A DNA stretch of 64,000 nucleotides from Deinococcales bacterium (GCA_031414595.1 JANNVX010000114.1:1-64000); one strand, 5' to 3'. Shown: positions 33,274-57,014, numbered from the stretch's first letter. Numbers and translations are program-made. The notes: a model not told the origin generated them from the sequence alone.

Positions 33274-33783
33274 ATGACAACATTTGCCCCAACCATGCTT
33301 GCCACACCAACTGATTTAAGTGCAAAAGAAGTACAAATAATCAGTCAAAGCCTGAATGCCTTAATTGCCGATGCTTTGGCTTTATATATCAAAACCAAAA
33401 ATTACCATTGGCATTTGTACGGTGCAAGTTTTAAGGAACTCCACGAACTTTTTGACACCCATGCCGAGCAACTTCTCGAGTCAGTAGACCCTCTTGCCGA
33501 ACGGGTGCGTAAACTTGGTGCGACCACACTGCATTCAATTTCGCAAATTGCCAAGTTACAACAAATTAAAGACGACGAAGACGATTTGGTTAAACCACTG
33601 GAAATGGTCAAGCGCTTACTGAGCGACAATCAATATATGGCACGTTGTCAACGCACTGCCATCAGTGTTTGCGAAGAAAACAACGATACCGTCAGCAGTG
33701 ATATTTTACAAAGTTACCTCGACCAAACCGAACGTCGGGTTTGGTTTTTGTTTGAAATTGCCCAAGGCAAAGCCCATCAATAA
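33274..33783 (+). CDS. dps: Dps-family protein
   Basis: LYIKTKNYHWH, LH..FD, D.LAERVRKLG, ERRVWFL. Confidence 0.95.
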   Translation: MTTFAPTMLATPTDLSAKEVQIISQSLNALIADALALYIKTKNYHWHLYGASFKELHELFDTHAEQLLESVDPLAERVRKLGATTLHSISQIAKLQQIKDDEDDLVKPLEMVKRLLSDNQYMARCQRTAISVCEENNDTVSSDILQSYLDQTERRVWFLFEIAQGKAHQ

Positions 33784-33905
33784 AAAATAAATTGGCGATT
33801 TGGAAAATAATCATGTGCGCGGGAGAAATCCGAACAATGATGAATCAGTTCTTGCCACTCGAGATGATGCCGTGCATCTCGGGTGAGACTTTTATCAGGA
33901 GCAAC

Positions 33906-34562
33906 ATGAAAACCGATCAGCAACTTCGAGAAGATATTATTGCCGAACTGGAATATGACCCAAGCATTGAGACCAAAAAAATCTCGGTGGCAACCTTGAA
34001 TGGCATTGTTACTTTATCTGGCAGTGTGCCAAATTTTTATGAAAAATGGAGCATCGAACGAGCCGTAAAGCGAGTGGCTGGCGTGAGCGGGATTGCCGAG
34101 GAATTAACCGTTCAAACTTTTCCCAATACTGAACAAACAGATAGCGAAATTGCCCAAGCCGCTCGATTGGCAATCCAATGGAGTGTGGCTATTGCCGAAG
34201 AACAGATTCAAATTATGGTTGAACAAGGGATCATTACACTCGAGGGTGCAGTGGATTGGCAGTACCAAAAGCAAAATGTCTACGATGCGGTTATTCATTT
34301 ACGCGGGGTTCAAGGTATTCATAATCGGATAACCTTAAAACCATACCTGACAAGTACCGACGTGCGTGAAAAAATCGAAGCTGCCTTTAAGCGCAGTGCC
34401 AACTTTAACGCAAAACAAGTTCATGTAACCGTGGACAACGGCAATGTCACGCTCGAAGGCAACTTGCCCACATGGACTGAACGTGACACCGCTAGCCGAG
34501 TGGCTTGGAACGCGGCGGGGGTGATGACGGTCAACAATCAAATTATGGTGGGTGGCATCTAA
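33906..34562 (+). CDS. Triple BON-domain protein
   Basis: Three GxVTLxG repeats; AGGAG RBS. Confidence 0.92.
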   Translation: MKTDQQLREDIIAELEYDPSIETKKISVATLNGIVTLSGSVPNFYEKWSIERAVKRVAGVSGIAEELTVQTFPNTEQTDSEIAQAARLAIQWSVAIAEEQIQIMVEQGIITLEGAVDWQYQKQNVYDAVIHLRGVQGIHNRITLKPYLTSTDVREKIEAAFKRSANFNAKQVHVTVDNGNVTLEGNLPTWTERDTASRVAWNAAGVMTVNNQIMVGGI

Positions 34563-34606
34563 GAATGCGTTCAAAAAATGCGGCTGGCAAACAAAGGACC
34601 AAAATC

Positions 34607-34933
34607 ATGAAAGAAATTATGCCAAGTAAAGCCTCGGATATGTCAGATCGGATTCATGCCAATATGTACATAGAAAGTTGTATCAAAACCGCCAAAACAT
34701 TTGTTGGAACGGTTGCAGGTATAAAAAACGATCTTTTTATTAAATTGCGTAAACGCGACACACCAGATGGTAAACGCCGTTTTATTCCACTCGAGTGGGT
34801 TCTGTCAGTCGAAGGGGATACGGTGCTGCTGAGTAAAAAAGCTGAAACCGTCAGGCGCAGATGGTTGACCAAAGCAGCCGTTAAAAAGCATCTGCACAAA
34901 ATACATAAATCCCAAAGTCAGTCAAAGCCTTAA
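34607..34933 (+). CDS. DUF2171-like protein
   Basis: VGTV...IKL.K.D..DG..RFIPLEWV..VEG..V.L. Confidence 0.7.
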   Translation: MKEIMPSKASDMSDRIHANMYIESCIKTAKTFVGTVAGIKNDLFIKLRKRDTPDGKRRFIPLEWVLSVEGDTVLLSKKAETVRRRWLTKAAVKKHLHKIHKSQSQSKP

Positions 34934-34961
34934 AAAATCCGCCATCCAAAAAGGAGGAAAC

Positions 34962-35186
34962 ATGTACGACATCCCTAACCATCTCAGCGATGATTTACCA
35001 ACTTTAAGTCCGTTGGTCAGTTTAAGCCCCGAAGTCTTTCTCAAGAGCCAGCCAATGCTGCTTTATGCCGATATTCTCGAGCAACCAGACCACTTACTGA
35101 TTCGCATAAACGTACCAGGTGCAAGACCAGGGAACATTATTGTCACCTTGGAGAACAATGTTTTATCGGTAGCAGCCAAACTCGAG
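34962..35186 (+). pseudogene. Hsp20 5' fragment truncated at CTCGAG
   Basis: Matches paralog at 48060 up to SV..xLE (CTCGAG 35181-35186), then similarity stops. Confidence 0.8.
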
Positions 35187-35381
35187 CCACGGCTGGAGAA
35201 TCTGTTGCGCTTCGTTTTTATTTGTTTCTTCAGGAATTATCAGAAAACGACCATGTTGCACATTGGTTAGAATCACAGTTGCTTCGAGTTGATGTGCCAG
35301 CAAAAAACCCGATTCGATGGCTTTATTTACGGCGGTTTGTTCATTGTGGGCAACGGGTATAAGAATTCGTTTGATGGTCAT
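35181..35381 (-). pseudogene. Universal stress protein 5' fragment truncated at the same CTCGAG
   Basis: IKRILIPV...LA..L.A.V; AAGGAG RBS; after QPWLE it reads into antisense Hsp20. Confidence 0.75.
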
Positions 35382-35435
35382 GATTCACGCTCCTTTTGTT
35401 AAAAGCTACGTTAGAACCAGTGCATTACGGCGATA

Positions 35436-36296
35436 TTACTGCCAGCGCTCGAGAACCTGATTATGTTGACCCACACAAGCTCCATCGCTCGAGAATGGAC
35501 AATTGGCTGTAACTTGCACTGGTTGACGATTACAGATTTTCTCCCCGTTTTTGATCCGCTCAGCAAGCACTAAAGTTTCTGGCATTGGTGAATCCTCGAG
35601 TTCTGCGCGTAAAAAATGAATGAACCGACGGTAATGTTCGATGGCAGCGTACTTATCTTCCACCACTGATAGACAAGTCATCAGTTTTTGATGGTAGTTC
35701 TCGCCAATATACGGGTCTATTCGTAACGCCCTGACTAAAGCACCAACTGCACCTGCACACGCTCCTGTTCCGCAATGCAGCAAAGAAATCTCGAGATTAG
35801 CTCGGACATATACACCGCGCAGTTCTTCGCGTAATTCATTTGCCCAAGCTACTGTCATACTGGGTAAGAAATCTCCTTTGTACAAACCAATAACATTCTG
35901 AAAAGCCCTGAGTTTTAATTCTTCAGTTGCGGCATGATGGGCTGATTCAAGGGTTCTATACATCTGGTTTAAGTCGGTGGATGCCAGCACATAGGCATTT
36001 AAGCGGTAACGATTGTGCTGCTCGAGTAACACATCGTTATTTTCGAGTGCCTGACGAATACGGTGTACCGTGACCCGAAACCGATTATTGCTTTCTTTAG
36101 TCGGTTCGGTTTGCCAGAGTTGCTCAAAAATTTCTTCTTTTTGCTTACCTTCAGGGTGGGCAAGTAAATAAAAAAAGAGTTCCTCGGCAGTTTTACTCTT
36201 AAATTGAGCCTCTGCTCCATTCACCAGCACTTGATGCGTGCCTAGCGTTCTAATCTCGAGACTGATAAAGACCTCCAAGTGTAACCGAGCTTTCAA
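35436..36296 (-). CDS. SARP-like regulator (winged helix plus BTAD), Cys-rich, copy 1
   Basis: IRTLG, ELFFYLLAHP, LW, FRVTVHRIRQAL, LYKGDFL, DPY.E. Confidence 0.85.
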   Translation of the reverse strand: MKARLHLEVFISLEIRTLGTHQVLVNGAEAQFKSKTAEELFFYLLAHPEGKQKEEIFEQLWQTEPTKESNNRFRVTVHRIRQALENNDVLLEQHNRYRLNAYVLASTDLNQMYRTLESAHHAATEELKLRAFQNVIGLYKGDFLPSMTVAWANELREELRGVYVRANLEISLLHCGTGACAGAVGALVRALRIDPYIGENYHQKLMTCLSVVEDKYAAIEHYRRFIHFLRAELEDSPMPETLVLAERIKNGEKICNRQPVQVTANCPFSSDGACVGQHNQVLERWQ

Positions 36297-36333
36297 AGTG
36301 ACCTAAACACAGCCTACAGCTTTGTAGACAGAT

Positions 36334-36424
36334 TATCCTAATTATTAATTACCAAAGCATTACCAGTCTGTGAATCACGAATTAGTTAGGCTGTAACGCT
36401 ATGGTAATGCCAACCTTGCAGACT
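36334..36424. promoter_or_regulatory. Divergent SARP-type promoters
   Basis: Minus: GTAATGC-N4-GTAATTA-N8-GATAAT; plus: GTAACGC(36393)-N4-GTAATGC(36404)-N8-CAGACT. Confidence 0.7.
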
Positions 36425-36442
36425 CTTTCAAGGAGGCATTCC

Positions 36443-36871
36443 ATGTTTCAACATATCCTCGTTCCAATAGACTCGAGCCAATCCAGCAAAGCCGCCGCAC
36501 AACTCGCTGCACGGTTGGCTCGAGCATGGGGAAGTCAGGTTACTTTTGTGCATATTTACGAAGGTGACGCGACCCAAGAAGCTCGGGCTTTACTCGAGGG
36601 TTTTATACAATACACCCGTCTTGTCCCACACCTGATTCTCGAGCCGATGCAGCATAACTTATCAGAAACACTGGTTGGACTTGCCACTCGAGAAGCCACC
36701 GAACTAATCCTGATTGGTGTTCATGCCTATGCCAGACTCGAGCAAGAAGTGCTGGATGGGGTGGCAGGAAGCATTTCGGAACAAGCCAAAATACCCGTCT
36801 TAATCGTGCCAATAGAAAGTAAAAAAGTTGGGTTTGAAGCGCGTTGGGCAAGTGCGGTAATGCAGCCGTAA
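36443..36871 (+). CDS. Universal stress protein
   Basis: MFQHILVPIDSS, LILIG, IPVLIVP; AGGAGG RBS. Confidence 0.88.
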   Translation: MFQHILVPIDSSQSSKAAAQLAARLARAWGSQVTFVHIYEGDATQEARALLEGFIQYTRLVPHLILEPMQHNLSETLVGLATREATELILIGVHAYARLEQEVLDGVAGSISEQAKIPVLIVPIESKKVGFEARWASAVMQP

Positions 36872-37071
36872 TGCCAGTACCGCAAACTATTCTCGAGTGA
36901 GGTGAACCATGCGAACCATTCCAGTAATCGGTAGTTTAACCCTATTTCTAGCCAGTTTATTTGTTGCCATAAATTTACAAAAACCATTGGCAGGACTGAT
37001 TATTTTAATTGTTAGCTTGCTGACTTTGTGGCTCGAAGTTAGCCACCGAGATTCACAAGAAGGAGAACATC

Positions 37072-38022
37072 ATGTTCGCTAAAGTCTGCATTCCTGTTAC
37101 CAACGAATCCCTGTCCATTCATGCGGCTCGAGCCGCGCTGGATTTTGCCCATAAACTCAAGGCTACAGCTGTGTTTGTATCGGTCTTTACAATGCCGATT
37201 ATTTACCGCTCTCAGACCGAAGAAGAAGTTCGGCTTGAATTACAAAAAAATACTGAAGCCTTTCTCGAGACTTGGATAGAATTTGCCGAGCATCGCCAAG
37301 TTCCAGTCAGTACAATCGCCATTGAAGCTCGAGCCTCGGGAATCGCCCAAACCATTGCCGAAATTGCTCTTGAGGAACACTGCGATTTAATCGCTATGGG
37401 AACACACGCCTACGAAGGGATGAACCGACTTTTGCTTGGTAGTATCGCCGAAGCTGTGACACGTTATTCGCACTTACCAGTGATGCTATTCCATATCGGT
37501 CTTGTACCAACCGCCAAACCATTTGATTGCAACCGAATTCTGGTGGCTGTGGATGGTAGTCAAGCTACAGCCGAAGCACTTGATATTACCAGAGCTTTGG
37601 CTAAACAATTGCCTGCCAGTGTTGAAATCTTGCACGTAGTACCTGACGTTCCACCGACTTACGATACCATCATGCCAATGATTGATTACTCAAACCTAGC
37701 TACTGATTACTTAAACGAAGGTAAGCATATTTTGTACAACGCTGAAGCTAAACTAACCGACATTAGCAACAAGGAATTGGTTCTCGAGCCAGCCGGTGGT
37801 CGGCGAATTGCCACTGTGATTCTCGAGATTGCTAAAAATCATCACGCTGATTTGATTGTGCTGGGAACACACGGGTACGGTGGTTTAGACCGAATTTTAC
37901 TCGGCAGCGTGGCGCAAGCCGTGGCGCACCATGCTCATGTGCCTGTGCTGCTGACTCGAGCAGCACAGCGCGAAGATGTGGCTGCCTCTGCTGCTACTGC
38001 CCTCCCAAGTTTAGCTGTTTAA
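37072..38022 (+). CDS. Tandem-domain universal stress protein
   Basis: Two DLI.xGTH...LLGSxA motifs. Confidence 0.92.
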   Translation: MFAKVCIPVTNESLSIHAARAALDFAHKLKATAVFVSVFTMPIIYRSQTEEEVRLELQKNTEAFLETWIEFAEHRQVPVSTIAIEARASGIAQTIAEIALEEHCDLIAMGTHAYEGMNRLLLGSIAEAVTRYSHLPVMLFHIGLVPTAKPFDCNRILVAVDGSQATAEALDITRALAKQLPASVEILHVVPDVPPTYDTIMPMIDYSNLATDYLNEGKHILYNAEAKLTDISNKELVLEPAGGRRIATVILEIAKNHHADLIVLGTHGYGGLDRILLGSVAQAVAHHAHVPVLLTRAAQREDVAASAATALPSLAV

Positions 38023-38059
38023 GAATTTGTGACCTCGAGTTCCGTAAGGGGAGCAACCA

Positions 38060-38548
38060 ATGAAACTGACTTTTACTGCAATTCTTGCTTGGCTATCGGG
38101 CAGTGGTTTCTTGGTAGCACTGGCGGCTGGTTTTGGTATTCTAGGCGGGGCTAGTGGATATACTGCTTATTATGCAGGTGCAACCAGTTACTTGTCGAGC
38201 GACCCGAAAGCCTGTGTCAATTGTCATATCATGCGCGAAGTCTACGATTCATGGGCAAAAGCACCGCATCATAACGTGGCGGTTTGTACCGATTGTCATT
38301 TACCCCATGATTTTATTGGCAAATGGCTTGCCAAAGCCGAAAATGGCTGGAATCACTCAAAGGCATTTACCTTACAAAATTTCCATGAACCAATCCGAAT
38401 TAACAAAAAGAACCTAGAAATTCTCGAGCATAACTGCAAATCTTGTCATGCCGACACAGTGCATCAAATGGTATCCGAAGTCAAACAAGACAACAGCTTA
38501 GGTTGCTTGCATTGTCATGCTGATGTTGGGCATGGACCACAACGATAA
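38060..38548 (+). CDS. nrfH: Cytochrome c nitrite reductase small subunit (tetraheme)
   Basis: N-terminal TM, SYLSSDPKACVNCHIM, four CxxCH. Confidence 0.93.
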   Translation: MKLTFTAILAWLSGSGFLVALAAGFGILGGASGYTAYYAGATSYLSSDPKACVNCHIMREVYDSWAKAPHHNVAVCTDCHLPHDFIGKWLAKAENGWNHSKAFTLQNFHEPIRINKKNLEILEHNCKSCHADTVHQMVSEVKQDNSLGCLHCHADVGHGPQR

Positions 38549-38557
38549 GGAGCAAAA

Positions 38558-39964
38558 ATGGCAAAGATTCGAGGTCCGGTACTGACTGCCAGTGTGTTCT
38601 TAGCTGGCGCACTTGTGACTGTTGGCGTATTAGCACTGTACACCAATATCGTGCAGCGCAAAGCTGAGGAAAAACAACACGTTTTCCAAGTTGTGGAAAT
38701 TACTGAAGACACCATAGACCCTGCCGAATGGGGCAAGAATTACCCCAAGCAATATGATAGTTACAAACGCACTGTGGATACCGAACGCACCCGTTATGGT
38801 GGTTCGGAAAACTTTCAAAAACTTGATTCCGACCCGTTCCTACGCACCATCTTTGCAGGTTACGCCTTTGGCATAGATTTCAGGGAAGAACGCGGTCATG
38901 CCTTTATGCTCGACGACCAACGCGAAACCAAACGAGTCACCGAACGCAAACAACCCGGCGCGTGCCTAAATTGCCATGCCAGTGTACTGACCGCCTTTCG
39001 GGAAACTGGTGTCAAAGCAGGAGTACCAAACGACGAAGACCACCGTTGGGAAGCCGTAGCCAAAGGCTTTACATTGGTCAATAAACTCACGTACTCGGCT
39101 GCTACAGCCCTTGTGACCCACCCTGTTTCATGTGTGGACTGCCATAACCCAACCGACATGGCTGTGCGTGTGACCCGACCAGCCTTTATGAATGGAATCC
39201 AAGCTCTTGCCAAATCAAACGACCCACTGCCTAATTTCCCCAGCATCGAACGCTGGCGCAAAACCAATCAAGCCGTGCCGTATGACCCAAACAAAGAAGC
39301 CTCACGCCAAGAACTGCGAAGCATGGTCTGCACCCAATGCCATGTCGAGTATTACATCACCAAAGAAGACAAACAACTGACCTTCCCGTGGCAGAACGGA
39401 CTTAAGCTCGAGCAAATCGAAAAGTATTACGACGATGTGGGTTGGAAAGACTGGGAACACAAAATTTCTAAAGCCCCAGTGTTAAAAGCCCAACACCCAG
39501 AAATGGAACTCTGGTCACAAGGCATTCATGCTCGAAGCGGCGTAGCCTGCGCCGACTGCCATATGCCCTATCAGCGCCAAGGCGCAATTAAAGTCTCGAG
39601 CCACCATGTTCGTAGTCCGATGTTAAACGTGGCACAAGCCTGCCAGACTTGCCACCGGTACGACGAAACAGAAATCAAAGCTCGAGTCGAAGTTATTCAA
39701 GACCGCACTCAGAAATTATTGACCCAATCAGAATCGGCAGTTGTGGACTTGATCAATGCCATTGCAACCGCCATGAAAGCCAAAAAAACCGACTCACAAC
39801 TTAAAACTGCCCGCGATTTCCAACGCAAAGCCCAATTCCGAGCCGATTTTATCAATGCCGAGAACAGCATGGGATTCCATGCACCCCAAGAAGCTGCACG
39901 CTTACTAGCCGAGAGTATTAATTTTGCGCGGCTTGGACAACTCGAGGTTGCAAAACTAAAGTAA
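38558..39964 (+). CDS. nrfA: Ammonia-forming cytochrome c552 nitrite reductase (pentaheme)
   Basis: AGYAF..DF.EERGH, CTQCHVEYY, KAQHPE, CADCHMPY, ENSMGFHAP; five CxxCH. Confidence 0.93.
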   Translation: MAKIRGPVLTASVFLAGALVTVGVLALYTNIVQRKAEEKQHVFQVVEITEDTIDPAEWGKNYPKQYDSYKRTVDTERTRYGGSENFQKLDSDPFLRTIFAGYAFGIDFREERGHAFMLDDQRETKRVTERKQPGACLNCHASVLTAFRETGVKAGVPNDEDHRWEAVAKGFTLVNKLTYSAATALVTHPVSCVDCHNPTDMAVRVTRPAFMNGIQALAKSNDPLPNFPSIERWRKTNQAVPYDPNKEASRQELRSMVCTQCHVEYYITKEDKQLTFPWQNGLKLEQIEKYYDDVGWKDWEHKISKAPVLKAQHPEMELWSQGIHARSGVACADCHMPYQRQGAIKVSSHHVRSPMLNVAQACQTCHRYDETEIKARVEVIQDRTQKLLTQSESAVVDLINAIATAMKAKKTDSQLKTARDFQRKAQFRADFINAENSMGFHAPQEAARLLAESINFARLGQLEVAKLK

Positions 39965-39976
39965 GGATTTGAATTT

Positions 39977-41831
39977 ATGAAAACTAAGTCGCTCGAGCCA
40001 CCGCTTAAAAAAATGATTGCCCAAGTCCTTAACCTACGCAACCAAGCTATTGCCCTCGAGCAAACGTACCACGTTGAACTTAAAAAAATTCGCCCCCCAT
40101 ATTTGCAAAGCGCTCGAAATTTAATTCATTACTTGGCGGTGCGCCAACAAGACATTCGTGAGATACAACTTGAGTTGCAACGCCTTGGTCTGAGTTCGCT
40201 TGGGCGCATGGAAGCCAATGTTTTAGCAACGCTCAATGCCGTGTTGTTCGCTTTGCAACGCATGGCTGGCTCGAGCGAACAGCTTGAGGTAACGCTTGAC
40301 CCACAGCTTGAGGTAACGCTTGACCCACAGCTTGGGCGCTTACTTCGTAATCACACCACCCGAATTCTTGGTAAAAGTCCACGACATCGGGCAGTGAGAA
40401 TCATGGTCACAATGCCCGAACAAGCTGCCACCGATGCTGGTTTAATTGCCAAATTTCTCGAGTGTGGTATGGATATTATGCGAATAAACTGCGCTCATGA
40501 CGATGCCATAACTTGGGCAAAGATGCTCGAAAATCAGCGCCAAGCAACCATTCAACTTGGACGCAGTTGTCGTGTTGTCTTTGATTTGGCTGGACCAAAA
40601 CTTCGCACTGGATTATTTGAAGCGAGCGCAGAAGTCCTCAAAATAAAACCAGCGCGATCAATTTGGACGAGTGGTGACCAAAGCTCGAGTCTTTTTTACA
40701 ACCACAAAGTTAAGTGCGCCAACCCAAACAGTCTGTATTCCAGTAACCGAGTTACAATTGCAAAGCTGCCAACTAGGTGATCAATTTTTGTTGACCGATG
40801 CTCGAGGTCGCTCGAGAATTTTTGAGATTATTGAGCTTTTAGCCACTGGTTGTATTTGCCAAATCGAACGAACTGCCTACTTGACTTCGGGAATGCCAAT
40901 TTGTGTTTACCACAATAAAAAACAATTGCTTGAGGGTCGAATTGGCAAGTTGCCCTCAAAACCACAAGCCCTCGAGTTGCGAGTTGGAGATACGTTAATC
41001 GTGACCCACGATAGTATTCTTGGCAATCAAGCCCGAATTGAGAACGGGATGCCAATACCAGTCCAGATTGGTTGTACTTTGCCACAAGTCTTTGGTGATG
41101 TCAAACCAAACGAGCGAATTCTATTTGACGACGGCATCATCGCTGGCATCATCAAAAAAGTCAGTCCAGAACAACTCGAGGTAGAAATCACCAATGTGGC
41201 TGGAGGTCTAGCAAAACTTCGTTCCGAAAAAGGCATTAACTTACCTGATACCGATTTTTCGATAGCTGCTTTGACTGAAAAAGACCTCGAAGACCTCAAG
41301 TTTATTGTTAAAAACAGCGATATGGTTTCGTTATCCTTTGTCCGAAACCGAAAAGACATCGAAATGTTGATTGCTCAACTCGAGCAATTAGGCGGGAAGC
41401 ACCTTGGCATTGTCTTAAAGATTGAGAATCGTCTTGCTTTTGAGAATTTACCCGATTTACTACTGACAGCCTTGTCTCACCCACCGGTTGCAATCATGAT
41501 TGCTCGAGGCGACTTAGCTGTGGAAATAGGGTTTGAGCGCCTTGCTGAAGTCCAAGAAGAAATTCTTTGGCTCTGCGAAGCGGCGCATATTCCCGTGATT
41601 TGGGCAACCCAAGTGCTGGATTCGTTAGCAAAAAATGGTTCACCAACTCGAGCCGAAGTGACCGACGCTGCCATGTCAGGACGCGCTGAATGCGTCATGC
41701 TTAACAAAGGCTCATACATTCCCGAAGCCTTGTTGTTTCTTGATAATGTTCTGCGACGCATGAAGCAACATCAGAACAAAAAAACTTCGATGCTCAGACG
41801 CTTAAAAGTAACAACGCCAAAGCTCGAGTAG
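39977..41831 (+). pseudogene. pyk: Long-form pyruvate kinase, frameshifted near 40652-40660
   Basis: IMVTMP, RINCAH, DLAGPKLRT in ORF1; KGINLP, LKIE, MIARGDL, WATQVL, PTRAE, MLNKG in ORF2; restoring one GC unit gives PARDQFGRVVT. Confidence 0.85.
40279..40334 (+). repeat. 24-bp tandem duplication (QLEVTLDP x2)
   Basis: acagcttgaggtaacgcttgaccc x2 plus partial. Confidence 0.9.
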
Positions 41832-41862
41832 CTGATGTACCTCTAAAACAAATACCAAATAA

Positions 41863-42711
41863 CTAAGCCAGACCAACGTAAGCACCATCTCTCGAGAAAC
41901 AGCAATTGGTTGTAAATGACATCGGTTCGCGGTTACAAATTTTCTCACCGTTTTTGATTCGTTCAGCCAGAGCAACCGTTTCGGGCATTGGTGAATCCTC
42001 AAGTTCTACTTGTAAAAAATGAATAAAGCGTCGGTAATGCTCTATTGCAATGTATTTATCTTCGACCACGGATAAACAGGTCATTAGTTTTTGATGATGA
42101 TTCTCTCCCATATACGGGTCTATCCGCAGGGCTGCATCTAAGGTACTGACTGCTTTGGCACACGTACCAGTTCCACAATAAAGCAGCGAAATCTCGAGGT
42201 TAGCACGAACAAAAACCCCGCGCAGTTGTTCACGCAGTTCATTTGCCCAAGTTGTGGTTATGCTCGGTAAAAAGTCGCCTTGATAGAGTGCGATAACACG
42301 CTTAAAGGCTTGCAATCGCAGTTCTTTGTTTGGGGCATGGCGGGCTTCTTCTAGGGTCTGATAAATTTGGTTTAAGTCGGTAGCCGCCAGCACAGCCGCG
42401 TTTAAGCGGTAACGATTATCTTGCTCGAGCAGTGCCTGATTATGCCCGAGTGCCTGACGAATACGGTGTACGGTGACTCTAAAACGATTATTGCTTTGGT
42501 TGGTTGGTTCGGTTTGCCAGAGTTGCTCGAGAATTTCTTCTTTTTGCTTACCGTTTGGATGAGCCAGTAAGTAAAAAAAGAGTTCTTCGGCGGTTTTACT
42601 CTTAAATTGGGCGGCTTGGTTATTGACCAAAACATGGTGTCTGCCAAGGGTCGCAATCTCAAGAATCGGGCAAACCTCAAGAAGTTCTTGCCCAATCCGA
42701 CCTTGCTCCAT
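41863..42711 (-). CDS. SARP-like BTAD regulator, copy 2
   Basis: Close paralog of 35436-36296; AAGGAG RBS before ATG 42711. Confidence 0.85.
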   Translation of the reverse strand: MEQGRIGQELLEVCPILEIATLGRHHVLVNNQAAQFKSKTAEELFFYLLAHPNGKQKEEILEQLWQTEPTNQSNNRFRVTVHRIRQALGHNQALLEQDNRYRLNAAVLAATDLNQIYQTLEEARHAPNKELRLQAFKRVIALYQGDFLPSITTTWANELREQLRGVFVRANLEISLLYCGTGTCAKAVSTLDAALRIDPYMGENHHQKLMTCLSVVEDKYIAIEHYRRFIHFLQVELEDSPMPETVALAERIKNGEKICNREPMSFTTNCCFSRDGAYVGLA

Positions 42712-42735
42712 TTTTTTCTCCTTGACACTGCGTAA

Positions 42736-42781
42736 AAAACCCAAATTCTGGAGTATTGCAACTCGAGCGAATTTGGGTTTT
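42736..42781 (-). terminator. Terminator-like hairpin upstream of BTAD copy 2
   Basis: AAAACCCAAATTC...GAATTTGGGTTTT ending in a T-run on the minus strand. Confidence 0.55.
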
Positions 42782-42811
42782 GCAGGAGTAAAATCAGAGT
42801 AAGGCGCAGAA

Positions 42812-42838
42812 CTGAAGTCTGGCTGAAGAGTAACTGAA
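42812..42838 (-). promoter_or_regulatory. Three TTCAG repeats at 11-bp period
   Basis: CTGAA at 42812, 42823, 42834. Confidence 0.7.
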
Positions 42839-42867
42839 CATAAACTACCTTGGCTCGAGCCTTAGGT

Positions 42868-43389
42868 TTAACTTTGTGCTACGGCTCTTAGAATATCGCT
42901 GGTGGTCACAATACCTTTAAGTTCATCGCCGTACAGCACCACTAAACACGAAATGTTCTCCTCGAGCATGACTCTGGCTGCATATGCCACTGGCGCGTCT
43001 TGGAGGATTGTAATCACTGGGTTGTGCATCAGTTCTTTAGCCGTGGTTTTCTCGAGCAGCAGAGGGATTTCCCATTGGGCGAGGCTAGTTGCATCCGACG
43101 GTAAGGCACGGCGAATGTCTCGGTCAGTAATAATACCAACGATTCGGTCATGATTTTTAACCAATAAATGCCGAAAACCATGTTCTTGTAAAATCCGTCG
43201 AATCTCGGGCAGGGTGGTGCTGACTTCGACGCTGATAACCTTGGCAGTCATGATTTCATGGACGCACCAATAACCGCTTTCACGGGCAAGCAATGGGGTT
43301 TGACTACTGATGTGGTCTTGATGCCCGAAACGCAATATAAATTCATCTTTGGTTTGCTCGAGCTTGGTGATACCTGTGGTTGTGGTCAT
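42868..43389 (-). CDS. CBS-pair protein (AcuB-like)
   Basis: IM...V, FRHL.V, VGIITDRD, GIVTTSDIL. Confidence 0.9.
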   Translation of the reverse strand: MTTTTGITKLEQTKDEFILRFGHQDHISSQTPLLARESGYWCVHEIMTAKVISVEVSTTLPEIRRILQEHGFRHLLVKNHDRIVGIITDRDIRRALPSDATSLAQWEIPLLLEKTTAKELMHNPVITILQDAPVAYAARVMLEENISCLVVLYGDELKGIVTTSDILRAVAQS

Positions 43390-43405
43390 ATATTTTCTCC
43401 TTTTG

Positions 43406-45007
43406 TTACAGCGTTAGCAGAATTTGCGCCAGCAGTATCTTGGCAATCATTGCCATTGGATAAACAGTCGCGTAACCTTGATTGGGTAGGTCGTTGCCGC
43501 TTCGTTCGGTGGCAAAGGCAAGCACGGCTGGTTGGGTTTGCAAGCCTGCCAGCATTCCAATCGCAATCGGGAACGGGACGCGCAGGATTTTATGGGCAAT
43601 AAATAACAAAGTAATGGCTACAAAACAAGTCAGGAACGTACCCAGTAAAAATAAGGTGATTCCGAGGCTCGAGAAGACTGTTTGACCAAAAGCAAAACCC
43701 GAACGTGTGCCGACCCCCGCTAAAAACAGCACAATCCCAATTTGGCGTAAGGTCAGGTTAGCACTGTACGGAATCTGCCATAAGACCCCTAAAAAACGTT
43801 CTCCCCAACCGAGCAACAAACCAACAATCAGTGTGCCACCCGCAATACCAAGTTCAAAATGACCACCGTTTGGCAATGGGATTTTTAGACTACCGAGCAG
43901 CAAGCCAAGGGCGATTCCTAAGCCAAACGACAGCACATCAATTTCAGAAAGATGCTGGTACGAATCGCCTAGAAAACTCGAAATCGCTTTCATTTCTTGG
44001 GGCGCACAAACCACCCGCACTCGGTCGCCTAACTCAAGAACGGTGTCTTTATTGGGTAAAAATTCTATATCTCCGCGCCGAACTCGAGTTATCAATGCCC
44101 CAAAACGCTGTGGCAATTGCAACTCTAGTAGGCTTCGCCCAGCCACAGCTTGGCTAGAAACAAAAACCCGACGGTAATCAAAATGACTGCGGTCTAGTTC
44201 GAGTGCGGCTGGAATAACCTCACCAAGCCGATTGATACTTTTTTGAACAGCTTCTTCTGTACCAATCAGGGTAATAATATCACCAAGCTCAAAAGTTGTT
44301 TTTGGCGAGACCAGACTTTGAATTTGACCACGCTGATGTCGCGCAAACAGCACATTCCAGCCCTCTGACTGTGCCACCACGGTTAAACCAATTAAATCTG
44401 GGTTGGTCAGGCGTACCGAGGCACTTTTTAAGCCGTTGGCTGTAAACCCAGCCACTCGAGCCGACTCGAGTTTCATATCTACCCGCCAGAATCGCTCGAG
44501 TAAGCCAATACAAAGCAGCATCGCAATCACACCCATTGGGTACGCCACGCTGTAACCAAGCACCGGTAAGGATTCGGCACTCGTACCCTTGATCGCCTCG
44601 AGTACCCCTGCTAAGGCGGGCGTATTGGTGAAAGCACCAGCAAAGACCCCAGCCACTAAACTCGGCTCGAGATTGAGAATGCGGCGCAGCAAACTCGAGA
44701 CCAGCACGGCTAGTATTAACGCCCCCAGCACCAGGGCATTATCGCGCAGACCACGCTTGCCTAGACTGCGAAAAAAACCTGTGCCACTGGATAAACCAAT
44801 CGTATAGACAAATAACACCAAGCCAAGGCGCTGAATAATCTCGGGCAGTTTAAGTTCGGCATCCAAACTACCAAACGCTAGCCCTACAAATAAAACGGCG
44901 GCAATACCCAAGGAAAAACCCGCAATTTTGACCCGCCCGAGCAGAAAGCCTAAGCTCGAGACCAGAAAAAGCAGCAGCAGTGGGTTTTCTTTGAGTAAGG
45001 TCAGCAT
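43406..45007 (-). CDS. AspT/YidE/YbjL-family antiporter
   Basis: GLVLFVYTIG, AGAFTNTPAL, YSVAYP, TrkA-C domains, GYATVYP. Confidence 0.9.
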   Translation of the reverse strand: MLTLLKENPLLLLFLVSSLGFLLGRVKIAGFSLGIAAVLFVGLAFGSLDAELKLPEIIQRLGLVLFVYTIGLSSGTGFFRSLGKRGLRDNALVLGALILAVLVSSLLRRILNLEPSLVAGVFAGAFTNTPALAGVLEAIKGTSAESLPVLGYSVAYPMGVIAMLLCIGLLERFWRVDMKLESARVAGFTANGLKSASVRLTNPDLIGLTVVAQSEGWNVLFARHQRGQIQSLVSPKTTFELGDIITLIGTEEAVQKSINRLGEVIPAALELDRSHFDYRRVFVSSQAVAGRSLLELQLPQRFGALITRVRRGDIEFLPNKDTVLELGDRVRVVCAPQEMKAISSFLGDSYQHLSEIDVLSFGLGIALGLLLGSLKIPLPNGGHFELGIAGGTLIVGLLLGWGERFLGVLWQIPYSANLTLRQIGIVLFLAGVGTRSGFAFGQTVFSSLGITLFLLGTFLTCFVAITLLFIAHKILRVPFPIAIGMLAGLQTQPAVLAFATERSGNDLPNQGYATVYPMAMIAKILLAQILLTL

Positions 45008-45022
45008 AAATACCTCGAGATT

Positions 45023-46852
45023 TTATTCGTGGGCGAGTTCCCCAAGTTCTGGTGAACGCCATAGCGCACTGAGCATTAACTCGCGGATAAAAATAAATTC
45101 TTTGGGCAATCTATCGTAGAGTTTGATAAATAATTCGTCGTGCGAGGCAATTTCTTGTTGCCATAATTCGCGGTCAATACTGATTAACTGCTCGAATTGG
45201 GTTTTGGTCATGTCCAGACCGCGCCAATCCATGTCCTCATAGCGGGGAACCCAACCAAGGACACTTTCGACGCTAGTGGCATGACCTCTGGCACGTTCGA
45301 CAATCCATTTGAGGACGCGCATATTTTCGCTAAAACCATGCCATAAGTAGTTGCCGGCTGCGTCTTTGCGAAACCAATTGACATTAAAAATTCTTGGTGG
45401 GTTGGGTAATTCCCTGCCAAGTTGCACCCAATGATTAAAGTAATCACCCATGTGATAACCACAAAAAGGTAGCATCGCAAATGGATCGCGGCGGACTGCC
45501 CCTGTTGCACCAACTGCCGCCGCCGTAGTTTCGCTACCCATTGTAGCAGCCGCATAAACACCATAAGTCCAATTAAAACTCTGGTAAACCAGTGGTACAA
45601 CCTTCGAGCGTCTGCCACCAAAGATAAAGGCAGAAATTGGTACGCCATCTGGGTCGTTATAAGCTGGGTCAATGACTGGGCATTGGGCTATCGGCGCGGT
45701 AAATCTCGAGTTAGGATGGGCGGCTTTGCGTCCACAATCAGGGGTCCAGTCTTGTCCTGTCCAGTCTATTAAATGCGCGGGTGGTGTGGCGCTCATACCT
45801 TCCCACCAAACATCGAGGTCGTCGGTCAGGGCAACATTGGTAAAAATCGTATTCTCGAGAATGCTGTTCATGGCGTTGGGATTAGATTCAAAATTTGTGC
45901 CTGGAGCAACCCCAAAAAAACCTGCTTCTGGGTTGATGGCTCGGAGTTGCCCGTGGCTGTCTGCTTTTATCCAAGCAATGTCATCTCCAACTGTACTGAT
46001 TTCCCAACCATCATCGGTAAAAGGTTTTGGTGGTATCAGCATCGCAAAATTGGTTTTACCACAAGCACTTGGAAAGGCTGCCGCCACATAGGTTTTTTCG
46101 CCGTTCGGGTCTTTAACACCAAGAATCAGCATATGTTCGGCTAACCAATTTTGTTCTTTTGCCAGCACACTAGCGATTCTTAGGGCAAAACACTTTTTAC
46201 CAAGCAAGGCGTTGCCACCGTAACCAGAACCATAACTCCAGATACTGCGTTCCTCGGGGAAATGAACGATGTACTTGTCAAAGTTACATGCCCAGCTACT
46301 GTCTTTTTGTCCAAACTCGAGCGGTGCGCCAAGGCTGTGTAAGCAATGCACAAAATCGTTGTTCCCCAATGCTTCGAGTACCGCTTGTCCCATGCGCGTC
46401 ATAATTCGCATATTGACCGCCACATATGGCGAATCGGATAATTCTACGCCAATGTGCGAAATTGAACTGCCAATCGGACCCATGCTGAACGGAATCACAT
46501 ACATCACCCGTCCGCGCATTGAACCCGCAAATAAGCCTTGCAACTTGGTTTTCATGGCTTTGGGTTCAAACCAATTGTTCATCGGACCCGCGTCGGATTT
46601 ACTTCTCGAGCAAATATAAGTGCGGTCTTCGACCCGTGCCACATCGGTCACTGCGGAACGTGCCAAAAAACTATTCAGGCGCTTATCGGGGTTAAGCCGT
46701 ATAAACGTACCACTTTGCACCATTTGTTCACAGAGCTTGTCGTATTCTTCTTGTGAGCCATCGCACCAATGAATGCTGTCTGGCTGGCATAATGCCGCGA
46801 CTTCTGCGACCCAACGTTGTAACTCGAGGTTGCTTGTGAATTCTTTTGTCAT
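45023..46852 (-). CDS. pckG: Phosphoenolpyruvate carboxykinase (GTP)
   Basis: [52 protein letters not shown]. Confidence 0.97.
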
Positions 46853-46870
46853 ATAAATCCTCCTGTTTGA

Positions 46871-46955
46871 AGTTTGCAACTCGAGAATTACCAGTGCATT
46901 ACCACACGGGTGGGAACACAACCGTAATGCCTTGGTAATGCCAGCCTTCGAGACT
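46871..46955. promoter_or_regulatory. Divergent SARP-type promoters
   Basis: Minus: GTAATGC-N4-GTAATTC-N8-CAAACT; plus: GTAATGC(46924)-N4-GTAATGC(46935)-N8-GAGACT. Confidence 0.72.
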
Positions 46956-46972
46956 CTTGTTCGGAGGTACTT

Positions 46973-47878
46973 ATGAAAATCAGTATTATTGGAGCAGGAA
47001 TGGTTGGTGGCGCAATTGCCAATGCTTTAGCCCAAAAGAACTTGGCTTTAGAAGTCGTTTTAATAGATAAAGAACACAGTCTTGCCGATGCACAAGCCCT
47101 TGACATCAATAGTGGATTCATGGGACAAACCATTATTCGCGCAGGTGAACTCAGTGATGTTCATGATTCAAAAATCATTATTCTCGCCGCAGGTCAACGC
47201 ACCACCTTTAATTACAGCAGTAAGCAATTACTCGAAGTCAACACCACCATCTTACAAACCACCCTCAGCACCATCCGAGCCATAGAGTTACAATCAGACG
47301 TGATCATCATCAATGCGATTCAACCAATTGACATGATGACCAATCACATTGCCAAATTATTTGGCGAAAAATATACAAATCGAATTATTGGCACAGGCAC
47401 AATCCTCGAGACCAACTTATTCCGACAAGCCATCGCTAAACAAGTTGGTGTTCATTTAAGTCAAGTTCATGGGTATGTACTTGGACAACAAGGCGGCAGT
47501 GCTTTAATGGCATGGAGTACGGTTCGCGTAGCTGGCATTCCGTTTGAAACCTACCTCGAGCAGCACGGACAGCACCTGACCAATCAAACCAAGAATAAAA
47601 TCGCAGAAGCCGTACAGTACGCGGTCAATAAAGCCTTGCAGCAAAAAGGATCGTTTTTGTTTGGCTTAGGTCATGCCATTACCCATTTAATCAATGCAAT
47701 TATCGAAGACCGTCATGAAATCATGACCGTCAGTGCATGGGATGAAGCTCAGGGCGTTGCGATTGCCTTACCACGAATTATCGGTAATAGTGGTGTTCTC
47801 GAGACGGTCGAACCGATGTTATCGCCCGATGAAGCTGCAAAACTCGAAGTGATTATCGGCTATTTTCGCAACGTTTAG
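46973..47878 (+). CDS. L-lactate/malate dehydrogenase-fold protein with degenerate active site
   Basis: [15 protein letters not shown] and GYVLG present; GQQG replaces GEHG and LETNL replaces LDxxR. Confidence 0.85.
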
Positions 47879-48059
47879 TTGTGTATTTAGGATAGAAATC
47901 TATTGTTTTCAGCAAGTCTTCAGCTAAATAACCTTACGCATTCAGGTGATGATGCTTACTTATGGAGAGTCAAATTTTCCACTGGCAGATTGTGGCATAG
48001 GTCGTGGTTTAAGTAAATTATTTTACTTGAAGAAGATGGGTTAGTTAAGGAGAAAAACA

Positions 48060-48542
48060 ATGGTTCATTATGATATTCCCAAGCAGCTTCTTCCTGAAAA
48101 ACAACTTACCCATGAAATTTGTCCACCCCAAAAGCTAGGCATCAGTCCAGAGGTGATTCTCAACGGCTTACCGAGGTTGTTACATACCGATGTTCTCGAG
48201 CAGCCAGACCATTTGTTAATCCGTATGAACTTGCCAGGTGTAAAACCAGAAAATGTGGCGGTCACACTAATGAACAATGTCTTATCGGTAGTGGCGCGGC
48301 TCGAGACTGAATCGCTAGAAGCACAGTATTTGTGGCGTGAACGCCCAAGTGGTGAAGTTTTTCGTTCGATTGCTTTAATTGGCGACCTCGAGATGTGTGG
48401 TGGTCGGGCTTTTCTCGAGCATGGCGTGTTGACTGTGCGGGTTAATAAAGTCAATAGCCATGTGCTTGCAGTACAACTTGGGGCGCTCGAGCATGATTAC
48501 TTAGAGCTTGTGCAAACAGACTTTTGTCAAGCTTGGTACTGA
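48060..48542 (+). CDS. Hsp20 small heat-shock protein
   Basis: LPGV.PE.V.V, RER..G...RSI.L, GVLTV.V.K. Confidence 0.85.
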   Translation: MVHYDIPKQLLPEKQLTHEICPPQKLGISPEVILNGLPRLLHTDVLEQPDHLLIRMNLPGVKPENVAVTLMNNVLSVVARLETESLEAQYLWRERPSGEVFRSIALIGDLEMCGGRAFLEHGVLTVRVNKVNSHVLAVQLGALEHDYLELVQTDFCQAWY

Positions 48543-48554
48543 ACAAGGAGTTTT

Positions 48555-49064
48555 ATGACGATTCCAGCCACAAAAATGTTGGCGACTCCAACAGACCTAA
48601 GCCCAGACCAAGTGACAGCCATTAGCCAAACCATTAATATTTTAATTGCTGATACTTTGGCGCTCTATATTAAAACCAAGAATTTTCATTGGCATTTGTA
48701 TGGCGCAGACTTCAAGGAACTGCACGAGCTTTTTGACTCGCACGCCGACCAATTACTGGCTTATGTAGATGTGCTTGCCGAGCGTGTCCGCAAACTTGGT
48801 GAACCAACCCTACATTCAATTTCGCAAATTGCCAAGTTACAACAAATTAAAGATGACAATGAACCCTCGGTCAAGCCACTTGAGATGGTTAAGCGGTTAT
48901 TGAGCGATAACCAACAGATGGTTCGTCAGCAACGAACAGCCATTGCACTTTGCGAAGCCAACCACGATTCGCCTACCAGCAATGTTTTACAAACGTTCCT
49001 TGATGAAACCGAGCGTCGTGTTTGGTTTTTATTTGAGATTACCCAAGGAGAAAAATCCAAATAG
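48555..49064 (+). CDS. dps: Dps-family protein (paralog)
   Basis: KTKNFHWH, LAERVRKLG, ETERRVWFL. Confidence 0.95.
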   Translation: MTIPATKMLATPTDLSPDQVTAISQTINILIADTLALYIKTKNFHWHLYGADFKELHELFDSHADQLLAYVDVLAERVRKLGEPTLHSISQIAKLQQIKDDNEPSVKPLEMVKRLLSDNQQMVRQQRTAIALCEANHDSPTSNVLQTFLDETERRVWFLFEITQGEKSK

Positions 49065-49090
49065 TTTTTTCTAGGTCAAAAGGAGTATTT

Positions 49091-49185
49091 ATGGACAGCA
49101 CTAAAAAAAACTTGAGGCGGCAACTCGAGCCGCTTGGAATACCCAGGGTGTGACTTCGGTCAGAAACGACATTTTGATTGCTTGA
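49091..49185 (+). pseudogene. BON-protein remnant
   Basis: RBS plus ATG, A8 run, then out of frame EAATRAAWNTQGVTSVRNDILIA*, like the neighbouring BON C-termini. Confidence 0.55.
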
Positions 49186-49272
49186 AACTCGGAAGTGAAA
49201 ACTGAACCAGTCGTTTCTCGCCACTCGAGATGATGCCGTGCATATTAAGTGAGACGCTAAACAGGAGTAATC

Positions 49273-49935
49273 ATGAAAACCGATAAAAAATTACAAGAAG
49301 ATGTTCTTGCCGAACTGGATTTTGAACCAAGTGTCAATGCGGCTCACGTTGGAGTAACCGCCAATAATGGCGTGGTTACACTGACAGGGACAGTGGATTC
49401 ATTTGCTGGCAAAATGGCTATCTCGAGGGTGATTGAACGGGTCAATGGCGTTTTTGGCATCGCCGATGAAATGAAGGTTAATCTGCCCTCGAGCCATCAG
49501 CGCAACGATACCGACATTGCCCGAGCCGCCGTTGAAGCCCTAGAGTGGAGTTGGCTTATACCGCGTGAGAGCATCAAAGTGAAGGTGCAAAGTGGTTGGG
49601 TGACACTTGAAGGCGAAGTTCATTGGGAGTTTCAGCGCGGTCAGGCACATCAAACGATGAATAGTTTGGTTGGGGTACGCGGGGTCAGCAATAACCTTAA
49701 AATCAAAGCCAGCCAAATTAACATTCAACCGTACAGCATCGAAACCAGCATCAAAAATGCCTTCGAGCGCAACGCCGAACTAAACAGCAAAGCCATTTCC
49801 ATCGAGGTTATGGCTGGACGTGTCACCTTGCGTGGCAATTTACCATCGTTAAAAGAACGTGATTCAGCAGTGTTGGCAGCTTGGAGCGCTCCAGGTGTGA
49901 TTGGTGTGGAAAACCGCATTGTGATTGGTACTTAG
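49273..49935 (+). CDS. Triple BON-domain protein
   Basis: Three BON repeats, AAWSAPGV. Confidence 0.92.
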   Translation: MKTDKKLQEDVLAELDFEPSVNAAHVGVTANNGVVTLTGTVDSFAGKMAISRVIERVNGVFGIADEMKVNLPSSHQRNDTDIARAAVEALEWSWLIPRESIKVKVQSGWVTLEGEVHWEFQRGQAHQTMNSLVGVRGVSNNLKIKASQINIQPYSIETSIKNAFERNAELNSKAISIEVMAGRVTLRGNLPSLKERDSAVLAAWSAPGVIGVENRIVIGT

Positions 49936-50002
49936 AACCCATATGGCAATTGGTACTTAGAAAACTTGGCTCGAGACTGCTCGAGATGATTAAAGGAGAA
50001 CG

Positions 50003-56836: not shown

Positions 56837-56886
56837 GAATCCTCCAAAATTTCTTCAGTTCCCAAGTAAAAGTCAAGCAAAGTCAA

Positions 56887-56964
56887 TTGAATTTAACCTG
56901 AGCCAAAACTGTGCTTGGACTGAAGAGCCGTGTTTTCCTCAGCTTGGCTTCAAGCATCAAACAG
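56887..56964. promoter_or_regulatory. Divergent promoter with opposing 11-bp-period TTCAG-type arrays
   Basis: TTGAA/CTGAG/CTGTG/CTGAA at 56887/56898/56909/56920; CTCAG/TTCAA/AACAG at 56938/56949/56960. Confidence 0.65.
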
Positions 56965-57014
56965 CTTCCGAGCAGCCCTTGAGCCTAACCTGTACTCGAG
57001 TAAAAGGAGTTCAT

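Follow-up and report, generated by a model that had tools for sequence, protein, structure and literature searches.

We analysed a 64,000-nucleotide stretch of DNA from a Deinococcales bacterium (GCA_031414595.1, JANNVX010000114.1:1-64000; the window, below, means this whole stretch) and found six sites that are probably activator-dependent promoters of a local SARP regulon serving a low-oxygen/stress programme; binding, activation and transcription starts are deduced from the sequence. In the proposed mechanism, a 22-bp box of two direct Y-N-GTAATGC repeats with an 11-bp period would replace the -35 element and end 8 nt before a weak -10 element. Two protomers of SARP1 and/or SARP2, paralogous regulators encoded at the locus that combine a winged helix-turn-helix (wHTH) with a BTAD domain, would bind head-to-tail on one face of the DNA and recruit RNA polymerase as the SARP domain of AfsR does at the afs box. 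The targets would be universal stress protein (USP) genes, an operon of a small membrane open reading frame (ORF), a USP, nrfHA and a pyruvate-kinase-like gene, an operon for phosphoenolpyruvate carboxykinase (PEPCK), a transporter and a CBS-pair protein, a gene of the lactate/malate dehydrogenase (LDH/MDH) type, and SARP1, whose action on its own promoter would be a positive feedback. Taken together, these targets would form a low-oxygen/anaerobic energy and stress programme, conserved across Deinococcota with varying membership.

An earlier note on this DNA had proposed the six sites, and a pattern search on both strands located every one of them:

Promoter 1, 35408..35439, minus strand: repeats 35422-35439 (GTAATAT-N4-GTAATGC, 2 mismatches), hexamer TAACGT at 35408-35413, start codon ATG 35381.
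Promoter 2 (SARP1's own), 36332..36363, minus strand: repeats 36346-36363 (GTAATGC-N4-GTAATTA, 2 mismatches), hexamer GATAAT at 36332-36337.
Promoter 3, 36393..36424, plus strand: repeats 36393-36410 (1 mismatch), hexamer CAGACT at 36419-36424, start codon ATG 36443.
Promoter 4, 36857..36888, plus strand: repeats 36857-36874 (0 mismatches), hexamer CAAACT at 36883-36888, start codon ATG 36909.
Promoter 5, 46871..46902, minus strand: repeats 46885-46902 (1 mismatch), hexamer CAAACT at 46871-46876, start codon ATG 46852.
Promoter 6, 46924..46955, plus strand: repeats 46924-46941 (0 mismatches), hexamer GAGACT at 46950-46955, start codon ATG 46973.

All six share one anatomy, in which two GTAATGC-like heptamers separated by N4 are followed after exactly 8 nt by a hexamer with A at its second and T at its sixth position. 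The start codons lie 17-35 nt past the hexamer, and a Shine-Dalgarno (SD) sequence precedes five of the six; at promoter 3, for example, the SD is followed by the ATG 18 nt past the hexamer. Promoter 2 has the best -10 of the set (GATAAT), promoter 4 is conserved in two relatives (L066 and L067), boxes orthologous to promoter 5 precede PEPCK in L071, L072 and L123, and promoter 6 has a weak third repeat at 46913. Promoter 1 is the weakest of the six. The gene behind it, described earlier as a USP fragment, is indeed a fragment and proved to be the first 68 residues of a tandem USP: only these residues of the 325-aa tandem USP of the related genome G006 were matched (45% identity over residues 1-69, E 2e-19). 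Promoter 1 now precedes only this truncated gene; its orthologous site in G006 (L065 10848, 1 mismatch) precedes the full tandem USP. A seventh match with 2 mismatches, at 42023 on the plus strand, lies antisense within the SARP2 coding sequence, has no A2/T6 hexamer and was read as chance. In a diverged biofilm-metagenome contig (X6; a single contig, depth 13), one base is inserted behind 46942 and one is deleted at 46947, both within the 8-nt spacer of promoter 6, whose length is thus unchanged.

The register between box and hexamer was determined with 59 sites, all different from one another, that were taken from the window and from related loci on the repeats alone (at most 1 mismatch). 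In the columns outside this selection, A occurred at +27 in 52 of the 59 sites, T at +31 in 51 and C at +30 in 39, and the columns adjoining this hexamer signal carried near-zero information. The spacing of exactly 8 nt to a -10-like hexamer, as claimed in the earlier note, is borne out by this fixed A/T register. The hexamers follow the consensus s-A-n-a-C-T, and just 6 of the 59 begin with T, from which we infer a weak -10 element that has retained its two key positions. A purine-rich SD signal follows at +38 to +43. Two bases 5' of each repeat there is a pyrimidine (A in 0/59 at -2 and at +9), so that the repeat unit is Y-N-GTAATGC; a conserved third repeat was absent among the 59 sites. 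A generic sigma-70 scan for a -35 plus a -10 recovered none of the six promoters (0/6), which fits the absence of a -35 element.

This geometry follows a published rule for SARPs, which the earlier note had quoted and which is stated in the extract of PMC10936776 used here: 8 bp separate the 3' repeat from the -10 element, the spacing of the repeats is 11 or 22 bp, and the centre of the afs box is at -29.5. A transcription start about 7 nt past the hexamer would put the centre of the box near -29.5 here as well. The overlap of the box with the would-be place of the -35 element suits a different idea, that SARP-like proteins repress these genes by occluding the -35 region and that inactivation of the proteins derepresses them. 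We regard this as unlikely: none of the six sites has a usable -35 element, a -10 that is weak at position 1 (T in 6/59) is what an activator-dependent promoter should show, activating SARPs have this exact 8-nt register, and characterised SARPs are activators according to the same extract of PMC10936776.

The sites were compared with chance in the window and in the whole source genome, a 4.49-Mb (4,488,778 bp) draft with 47% G+C in 120 contigs. With up to 3 mismatches the window holds 13 matches, against a mean of 6.0 and a maximum of 12 in 100 shuffles. On both strands of the genome, both 0-mismatch matches (2/2) and four of the eight matches with at most 1 mismatch fall in the locus. A position weight matrix (PWM) of 36 columns, trained on 76 sites that all came from other genomes, ranked 46924+ (41.3), 36857+ (37.0), 46885- (34.9) and 36393+ (34.3) as the top four of 8.97 million genome positions; the next-best score in the genome was 24.3. 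The site 36346- scored 20.8-22.0 (genome rank 6) and 35422- scored 15.4-15.7 (rank 13), and the six sites are the only PWM matches above 8 bits in the window. Three first-order Markov genomes of equal size gave maxima of 19.7, 16.0 and 12.4, with nothing above 20. Five of the sites are therefore beyond chance genome-wide. The sixth, 35422-, is not significant genome-wide by score because it lies inside the Markov range; its position and the orthologous G006 site support it. The earlier note had named commonness of the motif at random positions as grounds for giving up the idea, and the genome speaks otherwise, since its top four PWM matches all lie in the locus.

Outside the locus, three further matches were inspected and not accepted in the regulon. 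C1:26180 (PWM about 19) precedes an ORF without identity, a Dam-type methylase and a MutH-like gene, and the genes downstream of C80:8286 and C21:5998 are short or none is plausible.

These comparisons bear on the idea that the repeats are non-regulatory, either dispersed repeats or mobile-element remnants, or a by-product of oligonucleotide skew. The extreme skew of the window (324 copies of CTCGAG against 7.1 expected) and the lack of enrichment of the single heptamer GTAATGC there (12 against 8.6 expected) are on its side. The paired form, however, is confined to the locus in the genome and in every case faces a start codon, which lies 17-35 nt beyond the hexamer. Its distance to the A and T of the -10 is fixed, and in different families of the order it precedes genes from the same gene families, whereas its flanking columns are not conserved; a backward version of the composite pattern described below gave 0 matches in 301 genomes. 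We give this idea hardly any credence.

The regulators that we propose for the box are encoded within the same interval:

SARP1, 35436..36296, minus strand: wHTH+BTAD regulator of 286 aa, identified by Pfam, AfsR profile match, AlphaFold2 (AF2) and Foldseek.
SARP2, 41863..42711, minus strand: wHTH+BTAD paralogue of 282 aa from ATG 42711, 78% identical to SARP1.

Pfam BTAD (PF03704) scored 48.4 bits in SARP1 and 53.9 bits in SARP2 (cutoff 22.1). A profile built from 14 sequences found the AfsR SARP domain as its best relative in the PDB (E 8e-9), with positions 7-239 and both domains covered. The AF2 model of SARP1 has a mean pLDDT of 85.9, with residues 258-286 disordered, and its N-terminal domain shows a beta-helix-helix-helix-hairpin pattern at pLDDT above 90. 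When this model was searched with Foldseek, the matches were AfsR in a transcription initiation complex (8hvr_I; E 2.6e-9, TMt 0.75) and EmbR (2ff4; TMq 0.70), over 244-258 columns that include the N-terminal domain, at about 18-21% identity; beyond these two, only generic TPR proteins appeared. The earlier description of both proteins as wHTH+BTAD regulators agrees with this predicted fold.

Measured against the features of the SARP family, an N-terminal OmpR-type wHTH is seen in the profile, Foldseek and AF2 results, and the BTAD domain follows it. Repeats at 11 bp with 8 bp to a putative functional -10 occur at 6/6 window sites. The usual SARP context, an actinomycete with cluster-situated secondary metabolism, is not found here; the host belongs to the Deinococcales and the targets are energy and stress genes. 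Neither SARP1 nor SARP2 has a Response_reg match in Pfam at E up to 1e-3, both beginning directly with the wHTH, and neither has a Pfam GAF match within its 282-286 aa. Databases automatically name members of the family 'AfsR/SARP family' or 'BTAD domain-containing'. By architecture and predicted fold, the two regulators are small SARPs, and they are predicted to be DNA-binding activators. Their recognition helices are identical, and the motif N-R-F-R-V..H-R.R of this helix is near-invariant in the Deinococcota rows of the family alignment and differs in Chloroflexi relatives. The near-invariant helix of Deinococcota matches an invariant box, and the loci of the Chloroflexi relatives contain no convincing box.

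The assignment of the box to the SARPs comes from linkage and co-occurrence, not from geometry alone. Orthologues of SARP1/SARP2 are present in 19 of 41 close relatives, with boxes within their 1.5-kb flanks, and boxes adjoin orthologous regulators down to 38-46% identity, in Deinococcales metagenome-assembled genomes (MAGs), Deinococcus and Thermaceae. Boxes with 0 mismatches occur in 13 of the 41 close relatives, and all 13 are among the 19 regulator carriers. The phylum was sampled more widely with 301 genomes, using the regulator profile at E up to 1e-40 and the strict composite pattern GTAAYGC-N4-GTAAYGC-N9-A-N3-T. The profile was positive in 110 of the 301 genomes; in the largest sampled genus the count was 73 of 100, and in another sampled genus, g9, it was 0 of 31. 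The composite pattern gave 87 matches in 57 genomes, 50 of which carry the regulator, and many of the matches are at most a few hundred bases away from the regulator gene (G052, G054, G072, G142 and G146, for example). A backward control was unsuitable for the bare repeat: in reverse, GTAATGC reads CGTAATG and so overlaps those real sites that have a C in front (4 control matches at 0 mismatches). Markov-simulated genomes and the backward composite pattern were used instead as cleaner controls.

The boxes might also be real and be read by another protein, for instance an unlinked OmpR/PhoB-type regulator, with the SARP genes as mere members of its regulon. We judge this unlikely. It draws on a geometry that resembles a Pho box, on 11 matches (E up to 1e-3) to other wHTH/BTAD-like proteins elsewhere in the genome, and on the strict composite matches in 7 of the 191 regulator-negative genomes. 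ORFs and Pfam domains were called for 33-49 kb of the window and further ORFs were scanned with Pfam, over the range 28431 to 58945, and no response regulator or other DNA-binding regulator was found among them. Additionally, the box adjoins a SARP gene in many genomes, the invariant recognition helix accompanies the invariant box, and 50 of the 57 motif-positive genomes carry a SARP.

Several points weigh against a SARP-driven activation of the six sites. PhoB/OmpR response regulators use a like geometry, with 7-bp direct repeats at an 11-bp period in place of the -35 element, and geometry alone does not identify the regulator. A box over the -35 position could in principle repress instead of activating, and the hexamers are taken as -10 elements from their sequence. 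The wHTH match to Pfam Trans_reg_C is below the gathering score (21.6 and 20.8 bits, cutoff 26.2). The sites 36346- and 35422- are weak, and the latter scores in the genome-wide chance range and precedes a truncated gene only. The strict pattern is missing from 60 of the 110 regulator-positive genomes, probably through undercounting of degenerate sites, and is present in the 7 regulator-negative genomes mentioned above; the related genomes in the sample of 301 are also non-independent. On balance, activation by SARP1 and/or SARP2 is the reading that we favour.

The earlier note had both regulators controlling their own expression, and this was supported for SARP1 only. SARP1 has its own box at promoter 2, and 0-mismatch boxes precede orthologous regulators in L066, L074 and L075, which supports autoregulation as a prediction for SARP1. 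SARP2 has no box of its own and lies behind a terminator-like hairpin with the following position:

Terminator-like hairpin with a U run, 42736..42781, minus strand: between the CBS gene and SARP2.

The hairpin has a folding energy of -19.9 kcal/mol (z -4.25), and 0 of 200 shuffles were equally stable. A simple terminator scan missed it because its loop exceeds 8 nt. SARP2 may be expressed by read-through from the pckG promoter or from an unrecognised promoter.

The gene calls of the earlier note were reproduced with Pfam and ORF analysis, and the genes around the regulators are as follows:

Truncated USP, 35163..35381, minus strand: 72 aa from ATG 35381, ORF call.
USP, 36443..36871, plus strand: 142 aa from ATG 36443, SD present.
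Putative operon behind promoter 4, 36909..41831, plus strand: 57-aa ORF, tandem USP, nrfH, nrfA and pyruvate-kinase-like gene (Pfam).
57-aa hydrophobic ORF, 36909-37082, plus strand: first gene after promoter 4.
Tandem USP, 37072-38022, plus strand (Pfam).
nrfH, 38060-38548, plus strand (Pfam).
nrfA, 38558-39964, plus strand: Pfam; NCBIfam NrfA match below cutoff.
Pyruvate-kinase-like gene, 39977-40780 / 40671-41831, plus strand: split by a frameshift (Pfam, frame analysis).
Putative operon behind promoter 5, 42868..46852, minus strand: GTP-PEPCK, transporter and CBS-pair gene, same gene order in G006.
CBS-pair protein, 42868-43389, minus strand (Pfam).
AspT/YidE-type transporter with TrkA_C, 43406-45007, minus strand (Pfam).
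GTP-PEPCK (pckG), 45023-46852, minus strand: ATG 46852; NCBIfam PEPCK 975 bits, above cutoff.
LDH/MDH-family dehydrogenase, 46973-47878, plus strand: 301 aa from ATG 46973 (Pfam).

The TAA stop codon of the USP gene at 36443..36871 falls within the 3' repeat of promoter 4. Gene spacing suggests that 36909..41831 is a single operon. Its first gene, the 57-aa ORF, has no match in Pfam or NCBIfam, and its start is conserved in the relatives L066 and L067. For PEPCK, the start is better placed at ATG 46852, which has an SD sequence, than at TTG 46921. The dehydrogenase scores under the NCBIfam cutoffs for L-LDH and for MDH alike.

The pyruvate-kinase-like gene would encode about 610 aa, with a 137-aa N-terminal extension ahead of the pyruvate kinase barrel, and carries a +1 frameshift near 40660-40700. 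Over 40305-48000, freshwater sediment metagenome contigs (runs X1 and X2) show 0 differences from the window; they come from one study, maybe the source of the window, and so do not count as independent. The frameshift reflects either a pseudogene or an assembly error common to the contigs of that study.

Stress genes, in a duplicated set, lie to either side of the regulon (33274-35270 and 48060-50662); they comprise ferritin/Dps-like (33274, 48555), BON-domain (33792, 49273, 50003), DUF2171 (34505) and Hsp20 (48060) genes. A 102-aa ORF at 34962-35270 has no Pfam match, and its sequence looks Hsp20-like. No box was found upstream of hsp20 (48060) or of the ferritin-like gene 33274, and the PWM scan of the whole window found none elsewhere, 48555 included; we do not claim the flanking stress genes for the regulon. 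A baeRF_family10 protein is encoded in the window at 56835-58121 (plus strand) without a box, and in a Thermaceae MAG a member of this family (L092:11085-12215) is box-preceded and directly follows the regulator. Upstream of the locus lies an ORF of 2820 aa (19897-28359, minus strand). The CTCGAG palindrome occurs about once per 200 bp over the 64 kb, compared with a largest count of 20 in the dinucleotide shuffles from which its expected number was taken. Copies are found within genes and between them (187-192, 35448-35453 and 36255-36260, for example), and the palindrome is likewise frequent in related Deinococcales loci. A hyper-abundant hexamer such as this is reminiscent of the cyanobacterial HIP1 octamer.

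The genes preceded by the box in relatives indicate what the regulon may respond to. Single and tandem USPs are box-preceded many times, and a CBS-pair gene immediately after the regulator is box-preceded in the Deinococcus loci L097-L106 and L113. GTP-PEPCK together with the AspT/YidE-type transporter recurs behind the box, as do LDH/MDH-like orthologues (L075, L122 and L123) and a 1198-aa pyruvate:ferredoxin oxidoreductase (PFOR). In L087 and L093 the box precedes a multicopper oxidase fused to a cupredoxin, which we read as NirK-like. Other box-preceded genes encode a NifS-like aminotransferase, DsbA plus VKOR, a pyridine-nucleotide disulphide oxidoreductase, a multihaem cytochrome, a CBS protein followed by COX2, COX1 and cytochrome c, and a USP followed by a U32-family protein. 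The locus L121 (G015:C6:20000-38000) has about 12 PWM matches above 15 bits in 18 kb, a larger clustered regulon than that of the window, with boxes ahead of USPs, PFOR, DsbA/VKOR, the multihaem cytochrome, the disulphide oxidoreductase and others.

The counterpart in the window of the nitrite reductases and oxidases of these relatives is nrfHA. Since differing nitrite reductases and oxidases stand behind one box, always with USP and CBS genes, the regulon looks like a low-oxygen response and not a fixed pathway. The gene content points to low oxygen as the signal, possibly with nitrite or nitric oxide (NO) too. The earlier proposal of an anaerobic energy regulon in place of an antibiotic cluster fits the box-preceded genes of relatives, most of which have hypoxia, anaerobic or stress functions.

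A cysteine signature in the regulators was counted over 49 aligned sequences. Of these rows, 41 have C175 and C180, and the eight without them are a truncated row and the 7 outgroup sequences from Chloroflexi; C208 occurs in 40 rows and C255 in 37. A tail motif, N-C-P-x-[ST]-x-D-G-x-C, adds C266 (24 of 49 rows) and C274 (22 of 49). In the AF2 model, the turn that joins two BTAD helices has C175 on one side and C180 on the other (C-x4-C), C208 lies on the next helix and C255 just past the last one. Judged from the alignment, the four-Cys signature is specific to the Deinococcota clade of the regulator. It is possible, though less likely than not, that the small SARPs of this clade themselves sense oxygen, NO or redox state, with the cysteines holding an Fe-S cluster or a metal or acting as a thiol switch. 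The cysteine site would then gate DNA binding or polymerase recruitment, and a fall in oxygen would turn on USPs, CBS proteins, PEPCK/MDH-type fermentation, nitrite reductases (NrfA in this genome, NirK-like in some Deinococcus), PFOR and alternative oxidases.

The system can be set beside several known ones. ActII-ORF4, DnrI and RedD are small SARPs. As in the Streptomyces SARPs, exemplified by AfsR at the afs box of afsS, the regulators here have a wHTH + BTAD architecture and fold, and the regulator gene lies beside its presumed targets with its own box. The two direct repeats at an 11-bp period, the 8 bp to the -10 and the box that replaces or overlaps the -35 element are also like those given for Streptomyces in the extract of PMC10936776. 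Unlike the Streptomyces SARPs, the present ones are from Deinococcota and not Actinomycetota, their repeat is GTAATGC, the targets are stress and low-oxygen energy genes with no biosynthetic cluster, and the proteins share about 18-21% identity with the known ones and carry the four-Cys signature and a Cys-bearing tail. What is new relative to known SARP systems is thus the phylum, the repeat sequence, the kind of target and the Cys signature.

Compared with PhoB/OmpR regulators, those studied here have no receiver domain and a BTAD domain instead, and the distance to the -10 is 8 nt against about 10. DosR (DevR) of mycobacteria is a palindrome-binding response regulator of the NarL/LuxR type, controlled by haem kinases, that governs a dormancy regulon. 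The likeness to it is a functional analogy only: a hypoxia-type regulon with many USPs, a CBS-pair protein and PEPCK/malate carbon flow, with Hsp20, ferritin-like and BON genes near the locus in the window. Unlike DosR, the regulators here have no receiver or LuxR-type domain by Pfam.

Within the phylum, a parallel by description is DnrS of Thermus thermophilus (GAF + BTAD). In the portion of PMC5748679 drawn on here, DnrS is an oxygen-responsive activator of nitrate respiration and of its own operon and a proposed oxygen sensor, its lineage is said to lack FNR and NarXL, and biochemical data are lacking as an active form could not be expressed. DnrS shares with the present regulators the phylum, a BTAD domain and, as predicted for them, control of anaerobic respiration genes; it is large and its N terminus carries a GAF domain, unlike the regulators of 282-286 aa without a GAF match found here. 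Deide_19260 of Deinococcus deserti combines a CheY receiver with a SARP domain (COG3947) and is irradiation-induced with unknown targets, as given in an excerpt of PMC3564903; the present regulators are receiver-less and belong to a different family. This receiver-containing protein was the only SARP-domain protein of Deinococcus found discussed in the literature searched. No description of the box or regulon was found in that literature, whose coverage stopped short of subscription journals. The box, the regulator and the low-oxygen/stress gene set recur across Deinococcus and its relatives, and their regulon appears to be so far undescribed there.

SARPs are mainly actinomycete activators of antibiotic biosynthesis, according to the extract of PMC10936776. 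Here, in another phylum, a conserved low-oxygen/stress regulon appears to be run by proteins of SARP architecture from promoters of SARP geometry. Sensing of oxygen limitation is poorly defined in Deinococcus and its relatives, and a candidate regulator is offered here. Because the operator sequence, the predicted regulon and a candidate regulator are at hand, and cultured Deinococcus and Calidithermus species carry the regulator, the finding can be tested at the bench, and the PWM is ready for regulon prediction in Deinococcota genomes. If the cysteines do make these proteins sensors, a one-component SARP in Deinococcus and relatives would play the role that FNR or DosR has elsewhere, and the family would gain a new role, the redox-sensing control of primary energy metabolism.

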